This document shows, one piece after another, positions 60,773-63,079 of a stretch of DNA of 64,000 bases. Position 1 is the first letter of the stretch. Every line of letters starts with the position of its first letter. Made by a program: the position numbers and the translations under genes. The notes below the pieces were generated by a model, which made no database searches, was not told where the DNA came from, and worked only from the letters and a program-made list of their open reading frames with translations. The stretch covers positions 150 through 64,149 of the forward strand of contig CAJGCO010000006.1 in assembly GCA_904501925.1 (NCBI GenBank), read 5' to 3'. The stretch comes from an uncultured Alphaproteobacteria bacterium (lineage in GTDB: Bacteria; Pseudomonadota; Alphaproteobacteria; RF32; CAG-239).

Positions 60773-62833
60773 ATGGCGAACAATGATTTGCAAATGGCAT
60801 CAGCAAAAAAGTATAAAATGCCTTTTAATAGCATAACCAAAAGAGATGGCACTTTAGCCGATTTTGATAGTGATAAGATTTATAACGCCATTTTAAGAGC
60901 TGGCGAAATTACTTCTGAGTTTGGTTCTGAAGAAGCTTGGATTTTAAGTGCGCAAGTTTTGAAGATTTTATCTCATAAATTTGATGAGTCTCTTCCATCT
61001 GTTGAAGATATTCAAGATATTGTTGAAGAAGTTTTGATTTCTAATAACTATTTCAAAACATCAAAAGCTTATATTTTGTATCGTGATAAAAGAAGTAGAA
61101 TGCGTGATGATGGCAAAACTGTTGTTGACGTTGAAAGTTCAGTTAATGAATATTTGGAAAACCTTGACTGGAGAATTAAAGAAAATGCTAACCAAGGTTA
61201 TTCTAATGGTGGTTTGATTTTGAATGTGGCTGGTAAAGTTACAGCTAACTACTGGTTATCTCACGTATATCCACACGAAGTTGGTGAAGCTCATAGAAAT
61301 GGTGATATCCATATTCACGATTTGAGTATGTTGGCAGCTTATTGTGCTGGATGGTCTTTAAAAAGCTTACTTAGAGAAGGTTTTAACGGTGTTCCTGGTA
61401 AAGTTGAAGCAGGCGCTCCTAAACATTTAAGTTCTGCTGTAGGTCAAATGGTTAACTTTATGGGCACATTACAAAATGAATGGGCTGGTGCTCAAGCGTT
61501 CTCTTCTGTTGATACATATCTTGCTCCATATGTTAGAAAAGATAAACTTTCATATGATCAAGTTGAACAATGTATGCAAGAACTTATTTATAACTTGAAC
61601 GTTCCTTCTCGTTGGGGTTCTCAAACACCATTTACAAACTTTACTTTTGACTGGGTTTGTCCAGAAGATTTAAGAGACCAAAAGCCATATATTGGTGGTG
61701 TTGAGCAAGACTTTACATATGGTGAATTGGGTGAAGAAATGGGTATGATTAACAAAGCATACATCAATGTTATGATGCGTGGTGATGTTATGGGACGTCC
61801 ATTTACTTTCCCAATTCCTACATATAATATGACATGGGATTTCCCTTGGGAAGATGAAAATACTGAATTGTTGTTTGAAATGACAGCTAAATATGGTTTG
61901 CCTTATTTCCAAAACTTCCTTAACTCTTCTTTGAAACCAGGTCACATTCGTTCTATGTGCTGTCGTTTACAACTTGATTTAAGAGAATTATTAGCAAGAG
62001 GTAATGGTTTATTTGGAAGTGCTGAACAAACAGGTAGCGTTGGTGTGGTTACAATTAACTGTGCTAGATTAGGTTATGTTTACAAAGGTAATGAAGCTGG
62101 TTTGTTCGCAAGAGTTGAAGAATTGATGAATATTGCTAGAACATCTTTGGAAATTAAGAGAAAAGTTATTCAACGTTTGATTGATAATGGTTTGTTCCCA
62201 TTCACAAAGAGATATTTAGGAACATTGAGAAACCACTTCTCTACCATCGGTGTTAATGGTATGAATGAAATGATTAGAAACTTTACTGATGATAAGCATA
62301 ATATTGCTGATGAATGGGGACAAGAATTTGCTGAGAGATTCTTAGATTTTGTTCGTGAAAAATTGGTAAAGATTCAAGAAGAAACTGGACATATGTATAA
62401 CTTGGAAGCAACTCCAGCAGAAGGTGCTACTACTAGATTTGCTAGAGAAGATAAAAAACGTTATATGGGTATTATTCAAGCAGGAAATGATGATGCTCCA
62501 TTCTATACAAACTCTTCTCAACTTCCAGTTGGTTATACTGATGATCCATTTGAAGCTTTGGATTTGCAAGCTAAATTGCAATCTAAATATACAGGAGGTA
62601 CGGTGCTTCACTTATTTATGAACCAACGTATTTCATCTGCAAAAGTTTGTCGTGATTTTGTGAAGAAAGTTTTAGCTAACTATCGCCTTCCTTATATTAC
62701 GATTACACCGACATTTTCTGTATGTCCAAAACACGGATATATTGCCGGTGAGCATGAATTCTGTCCTATCTGTGATAAAGAAAAGAAGGCAGAGAAAGTA
62801 AAAAAACTTGCAAATATGCAAAAAGTAGTGTAG
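60773..62833 (+). CDS. nrdD: Anaerobic ribonucleoside-triphosphate reductase, large part (ATP-cone, barrel and Zn site, but no glycyl-radical loop)
   Basis: ATP-cone ITKRDGTLADFDSDKI, the core SMCCRL and a C-terminal CPKH...CPIC Zn site. It ends at TAG 62831-62833, before any RVxGY glycyl-radical motif. Confidence 0.9.
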   Translation: MANNDLQMASAKKYKMPFNSITKRDGTLADFDSDKIYNAILRAGEITSEFGSEEAWILSAQVLKILSHKFDESLPSVEDIQDIVEEVLISNNYFKTSKAYILYRDKRSRMRDDGKTVVDVESSVNEYLENLDWRIKENANQGYSNGGLILNVAGKVTANYWLSHVYPHEVGEAHRNGDIHIHDLSMLAAYCAGWSLKSLLREGFNGVPGKVEAGAPKHLSSAVGQMVNFMGTLQNEWAGAQAFSSVDTYLAPYVRKDKLSYDQVEQCMQELIYNLNVPSRWGSQTPFTNFTFDWVCPEDLRDQKPYIGGVEQDFTYGELGEEMGMINKAYINVMMRGDVMGRPFTFPIPTYNMTWDFPWEDENTELLFEMTAKYGLPYFQNFLNSSLKPGHIRSMCCRLQLDLRELLARGNGLFGSAEQTGSVGVVTINCARLGYVYKGNEAGLFARVEELMNIARTSLEIKRKVIQRLIDNGLFPFTKRYLGTLRNHFSTIGVNGMNEMIRNFTDDKHNIADEWGQEFAERFLDFVREKLVKIQEETGHMYNLEATPAEGATTRFAREDKKRYMGIIQAGNDDAPFYTNSSQLPVGYTDDPFEALDLQAKLQSKYTGGTVLHLFMNQRISSAKVCRDFVKKVLANYRLPYITITPTFSVCPKHGYIAGEHEFCPICDKEKKAEKVKKLANMQKVV

Positions 62834-62860
62834 AATAGTTTATTAGTGAAAGGGAGAATT

Positions 62861-63079
62861 ATGAGTAACGTTATTAATATTGAAGATGTAATTTTAGATA
62901 ACTCCGAAAGACAACGTTGTGAGATCTATAGCCGCGTTATGGGTTATATTCGTCCAACAACAGAATACAACGTTGGTAAGATGGGTGAGTTCAAGTCTAG
63001 ACGCTGCTTTGTTGAAGATAAAGCAATTTGTGGATGCGAAGCTCGTGAATGTGTTGATATGTCTTTGGCCGCAGAATAA
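62861..63079 (+). CDS. Stand-alone NrdD glycyl-radical domain
   Basis: Contains YSRVMGYIRPTTEYNVGKMGEF, the NrdD glycyl-radical signature. It is in the same reading frame as nrdD, separated by one TAG. It has its own GGGAG ribosome-binding site 5 nt before the ATG at 62861. Confidence 0.7.
   Translation: MSNVINIEDVILDNSERQRCEIYSRVMGYIRPTTEYNVGKMGEFKSRRCFVEDKAICGCEARECVDMSLAAE

Follow-up and report, generated by a model that had tools for sequence, protein, structure and literature searches.

A class III ribonucleotide reductase that is very probably naturally split, with its glycyl radical on a small second subunit, in an uncultured alphaproteobacterium

Class III ribonucleotide reductases (RNRs) are known from textbooks and reviews as homodimers of one polypeptide, which bears its own glycyl radical. 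Here, we describe an nrdD–nrdG locus that very probably departs from this architecture. It lies in a stretch of 64,000 nucleotides (nt) of contig CAJGCO010000006.1—hereafter the window—from the assembly GCA_904501925.1 of an uncultured alphaproteobacterium, whose genome is labeled G000 in this analysis (metagenome-type assembly, 44 contigs, 83% complete, 31% G+C). The locus reads, with a high degree of confidence, as a three-gene operon nrdD(large)–nrdD(small)–nrdG that encodes a naturally split class III RNR. In all likelihood, judged from sequence comparison, this enzyme is an obligate two-subunit system built from a catalytic protein of 686 amino acids (aa) and a radical protein of 72 aa. 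A preliminary description had spoken of an nrdD "interrupted" by a single in-frame TAG and had left open whether this reflects gene fission, stop-codon readthrough, a recent nonsense mutation, or a sequencing error. As laid out in the following, the word "interrupted" is a misnomer: the TAG is a conserved gene end, and the frame shared by both open reading frames (ORFs) is coincidental.

The gene of the large, catalytic subunit runs on the forward strand—like all features of the locus—from ATG 60773 to TAG 62833. Its product aligns to positions 3–659 of the 684 positions of the family model NF006126 with 1112.7 bits, which lies above the family cut-off of 548 bits. Pfam assigns an ATP-cone to residues 21–108 and NRDD to residues 137–676 (PF13597, E = 1e-177). 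The α/β barrel is present, the finger loop reads SMCCR, and a Zn motif, CPKH-x10-CPIC, close to the C-terminus marks a predicted metal site, which is followed by a Lys-rich tail of 19 aa. The earlier placement of ATP-cone, barrel, and CPKH...CPIC on this ORF is hence confirmed by NF006126, by Pfam, and by reading the sequence itself. Compared with T. maritima NrdD, the protein covers residues 101–617 of 651, with the Zn motifs of both proteins in register. A tail motif of the form LPYITxTPTFSxCPxHGYxxGxHxFCPxC is kept in 64 loci. Its finger loop is of the Met-containing double-cysteine type, which is described as compatible with formate or thioredoxin as reductant (PMC9669993). No glycyl-radical loop was found in the 686-aa product, whose model match ends 25 positions short of the model end. 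The large ORF thus displays the features of class III enzymes except for the RVxGY loop on its own chain, and it is a variant rather than a canonical member of this class.

The radical loop is encoded by the next ORF, as had been recognized before, which forms the gene of the small subunit and extends from ATG 62861 to the TAA at 63077–63079. It contains YSRVMGYIRPTTEYNVGKMGEF, and the radical glycine is predicted from this motif to be G28 (codon 62942–62944). The 72-aa protein consists of a head (residues 1–19), an invariant ERQxCE element with C20, the loop RVMG28Y, an NxGKxxE element, a Cys-rich tail (C49, C57, C59, and C64), and a terminal -AAE—an ending shared by many alphaproteobacterial small subunits. 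It matches only the ends of the NrdD models, namely positions 649–682 of NF006126 and 531–561 of PF13597. The latter, NRDD, is its sole Pfam match, and the radical domain of pyruvate formate-lyase (PFL; Gly_radical) remains unmatched. The consensus of the small-subunit family reads L.D.ERQxCEVWTRVMGYHRPVSxFNxGKKxEFxERxxFxE, within which R17, C20, R25, G28, Y29, R31, N37, G39, K40, E43, and R47 are invariant.

A profile of this family aligns to residues 616–645 of T. maritima NrdD. Large (101–617) and small (616–645) subunit therefore tile the T. maritima protein, with the break positioned between Zn site and radical loop. In T. maritima NrdD, 13 residues lead from the last Zn cysteine to the glycine; in the split form, the 19-residue tail of the large subunit and a 27-residue head of the small subunit add up to about 33 residues more than that. 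Within the genus, variable sites of the small ORF are distributed over the three codon positions as 16/11/48, and pairwise codon comparison yields 3071 synonymous versus 1209 nonsynonymous differences in its own frame, with ratios of 246/4060 and 398/3995 in the other frames. Judged by these codon patterns, the small ORF is under purifying selection. The small gene is present in one copy per genome in this genus and adjoins nrdD wherever both are assembled.

Cys20 (62918–62920) precedes the radical glycine by eight residues and does not vary across alignments of 76 and 66 small subunits. It is also present in re-fused one-piece relatives, and it is absent in one-piece enzymes with short linkers and in T. 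maritima. A role of C20 as a fourth, inter-subunit Zn ligand was considered and set aside: all four ligands are retained on the large subunit, and C20 also occurs in one-piece relatives that share the head.

The boundary between both genes was followed through the genus at two levels: 25 same-genus genomes, the window's own counted in, were searched whole, and the boundary was read in 20 loci, 19 of them within the genus (including the window) and the last from a different family within the class. nrdD was found in 23 of the 25 genomes, none of which shows an uninterrupted match that reaches the radical motif; the motif rather appears as a separate match or only past one or two stops. The two remaining genomes are a 65%-complete one without either gene and a 70%-complete one with the small gene only. 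A stop codon at the end of the large gene—the TAG at 62831–62833 in the window, ahead of the radical motif, with its previously given coordinates confirmed—is kept in all 20 loci, as TAA in ten and as TAG in the other ten. The spacer behind it comprises 27 nt in the window (62834–62860). It is AT-rich, 26–30 nt long, and variable in sequence throughout the 19 genus loci, and measures 40 nt in the locus from the other family. Yet, within this variable spacer, the Shine-Dalgarno element GAAAGGGAGA (62848–62857 in the window) and the following ATG are invariant in 19 of 19 genus loci. The proposal that the small ORF has a ribosome-binding site of its own is thereby upheld. Its details need adjustment: the GGGAG reported ahead of ATG 62861 is indeed present (62852–62856), but it is separated from the ATG by 4 nt instead of 5, and the conserved element is longer.

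In the window, both ORFs share a frame (62861 − 60773 = 2088 = 3 × 696), and the TAG is followed by nine sense codons—AAT AGT TTA TTA GTG AAA GGG AGA ATT—and then by the ATG, without any other stop in between, just as described earlier. Over the 20 loci, however, the frame of the small gene relative to the large gene is offset by 0 in eight, by +1 in 11, and by +2 in one. Because relatives hold the two ORFs in all three relative frames, the in-frame layout of the window is a coincidence. Stop codon and ribosome-binding site are kept among relatives—the very comparison that the preliminary description had proposed—which bears out its reading of a genuine gene fission.

Cells require a ribonucleotide reductase for the de novo synthesis of deoxyribonucleotides. 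A search for the catalytic domain of class I and II reductases, PF02867, in G000 and 15 genus relatives did not find it in G000, at the 83% completeness of this assembly, nor in ten of the 15 relatives, which include the 100%-complete genomes G008, G014, and G015. As no reductase other than the split enzyme was found in G000 or in several complete genomes of the genus, we infer, as a strong inference from gene content, that it works in these genomes.

Mechanistically, the 686-aa protein would bring the Zn site, the ATP-cone for allosteric control, and the catalytic barrel that holds the MCCR finger loop; the 72-aa protein would be translated separately from ATG 62861 behind its strong, conserved Shine-Dalgarno site. 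The small protein might then dock noncovalently onto the large one, such that the Gly28 loop sits inside the barrel, next to the MCCR finger loop. NrdG together with S-adenosylmethionine would turn Gly28 into a stable glycyl radical, which is hence supplied in trans. This radical would in turn generate a thiyl radical on the finger loop, from where catalysis is expected to proceed as in one-piece enzymes.

Structure prediction agrees with such a docking. AlphaFold2, applied to an artificial fusion in which the TAG was replaced by Gln (103 aligned rows), yields a model with a mean pLDDT of 79.7 and a pTM of 0.75. Within it, residues 5–54 of the small subunit reach pLDDT values of 72–90 and residues 35–54 of 81–88. 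Folded alone, the small protein gives a mean pLDDT of 65 and a pTM of 0.28, with only a hairpin around Gly28 defined and residues 35–54 at about 53. The fusion model superimposes on class III RNR structures at TM-scores of 0.64–0.76, normalized to the target. These predictions lend modest support to a small-subunit loop that fits the large subunit.

The two-gene form is widespread beyond the genus. A phmmer search with the 72-aa protein (E ≤ 1e-3) against 1.84 billion proteins, clustered at 50% identity, returns 1390 cluster representatives, the best 150 of which are all 48–152 aa long. Among species-level genomes, with one representative genome per species, at least 598 loci of the small gene are found. 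The best 80 of these comprise about 63 with loop-less large nrdD, small gene, and nrdG in this order, one one-piece gene, and 14–16 small genes without nrdD or nrdG within 3.5 kb. Carriers are gut and rumen Alphaproteobacteria (the kin of the window), Sutterella, Achromobacter, Castellaniella, Duganella, Ralstonia, Omnitrophota, Acidobacteriota, and others. In an evenly drawn sample of 300 Pseudomonadota genomes, NF006126-type enzymes occur in 14, and 11 of these 14 are split. The same three genes are also carried by plasmid pHG1 of Cupriavidus necator H16 and by megaplasmids of Ralstonia solanacearum.

Annotation of the small gene is uneven. RefSeq labels small ORFs of 58–66 aa as "anaerobic ribonucleoside-triphosphate reductase," UniProt mostly as "Uncharacterized protein," and those of the window's clade are a "hypothetical protein." The genome paper on C. 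metallidurans names Rmet_5137 and Rmet_5139 and passes over the gene between. Database pipelines thus see the homology of the small ORF but give it no role. Furthermore, several RefSeq records of Ralstonia megaplasmids show no feature over the small ORF in the plasmid collection used, whose gene table is incomplete, such that the original records may differ.

A tree of large subunits trimmed at the Zn site (FastTree, midpoint-rooted) places all sampled split enzymes in one clade with a support of 100. Outside this clade lie two one-piece enzymes whose linker is of the short canonical kind (CxxCGEETEVYSRVVGY). Two further one-piece genes, which keep the head of the small subunit (RQxCEVWTRVMGY), are nested within it, beside split relatives. 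Re-fusions are suggested because these one-piece genes with a small-subunit head nest inside the split clade. Provisionally, the tree hence suggests that the split is old—one fission accompanied by an insertion, with few later re-fusions.

Three other explanations of the locus deserve consideration, two of which concern the stop codon itself. Programmed readthrough or recoding of the TAG would produce one 768-aa NrdD with a long linker from Zn site to glycine and the junction ...QKVV-X-NSLLVKGRIMSNV. The arrangement in the window is what this would demand—a shared frame, a single TAG, and no further stop—and one-piece relatives with long linkers do exist (L101 and L190). Readthrough is nevertheless highly improbable as soon as the relatives are taken into account: the two genes are offset by 0 in eight, by +1 in ten, and by +2 in one of the 19 genus loci; some relatives bear two stops within the stretch that matches the model (two TAA in G002, TAG and TAA in G021); and the stop is TAA in half of the 20 loci. 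Moreover, the Shine-Dalgarno element and the ATG never vary, yet the nine codons from stop to ATG show no conservation at the protein level. Finally, the long reading frames of G000 end on TAG in 131 of 715 cases and on TAA, by far the commonest stop, in 526 of 715, and an aragorn search over all contigs of G000 found no suppressor tRNA, that is, no CUA, UUA, or UCA anticodon among its 36 tRNAs. By its usage, TAG is thus an ordinary stop in G000, read with the standard genetic code. Among the same 36 tRNA genes, a tRNA-Ile with the anticodon UAU was observed. If a one-piece nrdD had recently acquired a nonsense mutation, or if the TAG stemmed from faulty assembly or sequencing, the locus would be a pseudogene or an artifact, and the metagenome-type origin of the assembly, with its 44 contigs and 83% completeness, is of the kind in which this might happen. 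We consider it extremely improbable: the boundary, with its own ribosome-binding site and ATG, is common to every gene-bearing member of the genus and to distant phyla; the roughly 33 extra residues around the break, as compared with the 13-residue linker of T. maritima, are not a point change; the small ORF is under purifying selection; and complete relatives yielded no reductase besides the split enzyme.

A third explanation accepts the split and concerns the role of the small protein. It could serve as a consumable, GrcA-like radical cartridge: NrdG would charge the free form, docking would be reversible, and oxygen would cleave the small protein instead of the 78-kDa catalytic protein, whereupon it is replaced. 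It could be provided in trans by plasmids, temperate phages, or additional copies on the chromosome, and replaceability would have been what selected the fission. Oxygen is described to cleave glycyl radical enzymes at the radical glycine, and GrcA to rescue PFL (PMC13450708, PMC8683613). Many split hosts, Achromobacter, Cupriavidus, Ralstonia, and Castellaniella among them, are facultative aerobes or denitrifiers, two to four small genes occur in 13 of the 14 genomes that bear orphan copies apart from nrdD, some of these orphans adjoin ClpB or a rubrerythrin-like gene (identified from N-terminal sequence only), and stand-alone copies are carried by plasmids and phages. Nonetheless, the genus of the window has exactly one, nrdD-linked copy next to a loop-less large protein, as expected for a regular subunit, and we regard the cartridge as an unlikely description of this system. 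The preferred reading of an obligate two-subunit RNR has weak points of its own. At 83% completeness, G000 may hide a class I or II reductase, although complete relatives are without one as well; the AlphaFold2 support comes from an artificial one-chain fusion; the direction from fission to re-fusion is provisional, given FastTree and midpoint rooting; and low-level readthrough of the TAG may give some one-piece enzyme in this strain, even if readthrough is rejected as a conserved mechanism.

The two-subunit RNR can be set against several known systems. The closest are the one-piece NrdD/NrdG enzymes of T. maritima (PDB 4COI/4U3E), P. copri (8P23), S. thermophilus (9D3X), phage T4 (1H78), and E. 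coli. Shared with them are NF006126 and PF13597 matches above cut-off, ATP-cone, barrel, the MCCR double-cysteine finger loop, the adjacent nrdG, and the radical motif RVxGY...NxGK..E, and the predicted fold matches their structures (PMC4493059, PMC9669993). The Cys/His Zn site resembles that of T. maritima NrdD, where it reads CxxxHx6CxxC. Unlike in these enzymes, the radical loop resides on a second polypeptide, the chain is cut between Zn site and glycine, about 33 residues are added at the break, and the head of the small subunit carries the invariant R17 and C20.

GrcA/YfiD of E. coli and Y06I (vs.6) of phage T4 are likewise small stand-alone radical-loop proteins with phage relatives, presumably activated by the activase of the parent enzyme. 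This analogy, drawn already in the preliminary description, holds in concept only. The small protein of the window matches the NrdD model and is not homologous to the PFL radical domain; and GrcA coexists with a complete PFL, whose damaged domain it replaces, whereas the only NrdD of the window is devoid of such a domain. As no radical loop exists on the large protein itself, the small one is obligatory—in this genus it is a regular part of the enzyme and not a spare one. A 2026 review on glycyl radical enzymes knows spare-part proteins only for formate lyases (PMC13450708).

Split catalytic chains have been described for the other RNR classes. In class II, Pseudomonas aeruginosa has NrdJa/NrdJb, and in class I, phage Aeh1 has a split NrdA; each derives its catalytic chain from two adjacent genes, both products of which are needed (PMC4520616, PMC3267527). 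They differ from the window's system in class and in break point, and the radical-bearing element is separated in neither of them. The 2015 paper on NrdJa/NrdJb terms these a unique split RNR in a free-living organism. The best counterpart in a well-known bacterium is found on pHG1 of C. necator (Alcaligenes eutrophus) H16, where a 676-aa "ribonucleoside triphosphate reductase," a 66-aa ORF with ERQxCEVWTRVMGY, and an activase are encoded. C. necator differs from the organism of the window as a distant betaproteobacterium of high G+C, and its small ORF is called "nrdD" in RefSeq and "Oxidoreductase" in the original record. The nrdD–nrdG system of pHG1 is genetically needed for anaerobic growth, as cited in PMC2864759. 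A description of a two-gene class III RNR was not found in the searchable literature, which leaves out the 1999 pHG1 paper; these sources describe only class I and class II enzymes that are split, besides spare parts for PFL. The two-gene form is hence a large, apparently undescribed variant of a known enzyme.

If the two-subunit reading holds, a large share of proteobacterial class III enzymes would be hetero-oligomers with a radical subunit of about 7–8 kDa, also in bacteria that serve as models or matter economically, for example Cupriavidus necator H16, Ralstonia solanacearum, and Achromobacter. The small gene often goes without a name, is overlooked, or is called a 60-aa "reductase," and nrdD and nrdG alone would give no active enzyme in heterologous expression or in genetics. 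The detachable radical domain would also offer a natural system to study how an activase gains access to a buried glycine. For the gut alphaproteobacterial genus of the window, deoxyribonucleotides seem to be accessible through the split enzyme only.

The remaining parts of the operon appear ordinary. Downstream of the small gene, the intact nrdG noted before is confirmed at 63113–63814: it encodes a radical SAM activase of the NrdG2 type, which matches TIGR02495 with 197 bits (cut-off 131 bits) as well as Pfam Radical_SAM and Fer4_12. The ORF finder places its start at TTG 63107; GTG 63113 sits 6 nt past an AAGGAG at 63101–63106 and is, on sequence grounds, the likelier start. Upstream of the operon, a putative operator pair spans 60641–60689, with the palindromes ATACAATATCTTGTGT at 60641 and AACACAATATATAGTA at 60674, which we take to be candidate NrdR boxes by their likeness to the consensus. 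A typical NrdR is encoded in G000 at C5:57691 (149 aa, MKCPFCG...VKDSR). With this NrdR-box-like pair upstream and an NrdR in the genome, regulation of the operon looks ordinary. A consensus scan called no terminator anywhere in 60400–64000, and promoter-like matches in the same range were not above shuffled expectation, without an excess between large and small genes.

In betaproteobacteria, the genes are packed more tightly. The small gene overlaps the start of nrdG on pHG1 of C. necator H16 (L106; 2968–3168 versus 3152–3871) and in R. solanacearum (L108; small gene 2992–3168). The small gene of Ralstonia additionally shares sequence with the large gene's stop, an overlap that suggests translational coupling.

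Both subunits end in flexible tails (62774–62830 for the large and 63005–63076 for the small subunit of the window), and over the loci L026–L105 the cysteine pairs of these tails look complementary between subunits. In Achromobacter, Ralstonia, a Rhodocyclaceae genome, and an Acetobacteraceae genome, the large subunit ends with CC, CGC, or CxxC, and the small tail is free of such pairs. The reverse holds for Omnitrophota, Sutterella, and gut Alphaproteobacteria: their small tail carries CGC or CxC, their large tail no pair. About seven loci have a cysteine pair in neither tail, and the tail sample is small and phylogenetically clumped. By analogy to the C-terminal tails of class I and II enzymes, such Cys-pair tails (CC, CGC, or CxC, on either subunit and rarely on both) might act as a thiol shuttle.

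Orphan small genes are seen in gut Alphaproteobacteria and Sutterella (L039, L048, L049, L053, L061, L065, L068, L070, L073, L086, L089, L091, L103, and L104). In 13 of these 14 orphan-bearing genomes, the two to four small genes are arranged with one beside a loop-less nrdD and the rest elsewhere. Several orphans adjoin ClpB, RNase H-like genes, or a UvrD-like helicase together with a rubrerythrin-like gene (all identified from N-terminal sequence only), and one is located in a prophage-like stretch. A same-class relative, G027, carries a split nrdD and, on short contigs, four extra stand-alone radical-subunit genes of 53–59 aa: L021 1626–1799 (−), L022 3726–3905 (+), L023 802–969 (+), and L024 2141–2302 (−). 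Their neighbors are of mobile-element type, namely a NikA-like protein with a MobA/VirD2 relaxase; an ArdC-like zincin/pentapeptide/Toprim protein; an SNase; Mu GemA with GmrSD; and an AbiEii-like ATPase.

Viral sequences hold relatives of the small subunit, too. PHROGs has no annotated family for the small protein, and a curated phage collection gave a single match, a one-piece NrdD. In IMG/VR, 429 viral contigs encode a small-subunit relative. Among the best 80 of these 429 (L109–L188), 69 carry small stand-alone ORFs without nrdD or nrdG within 3 kb, about nine carry the gene directly after a loop-less nrdD, and two more have a weak partial match downstream only; in none of these 80 is an nrdG nearby. 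Among the genes checked next to the viral copies are phage integrases, a Cas4-like exonuclease, a DGR-type reverse transcriptase, and an HNH endonuclease.

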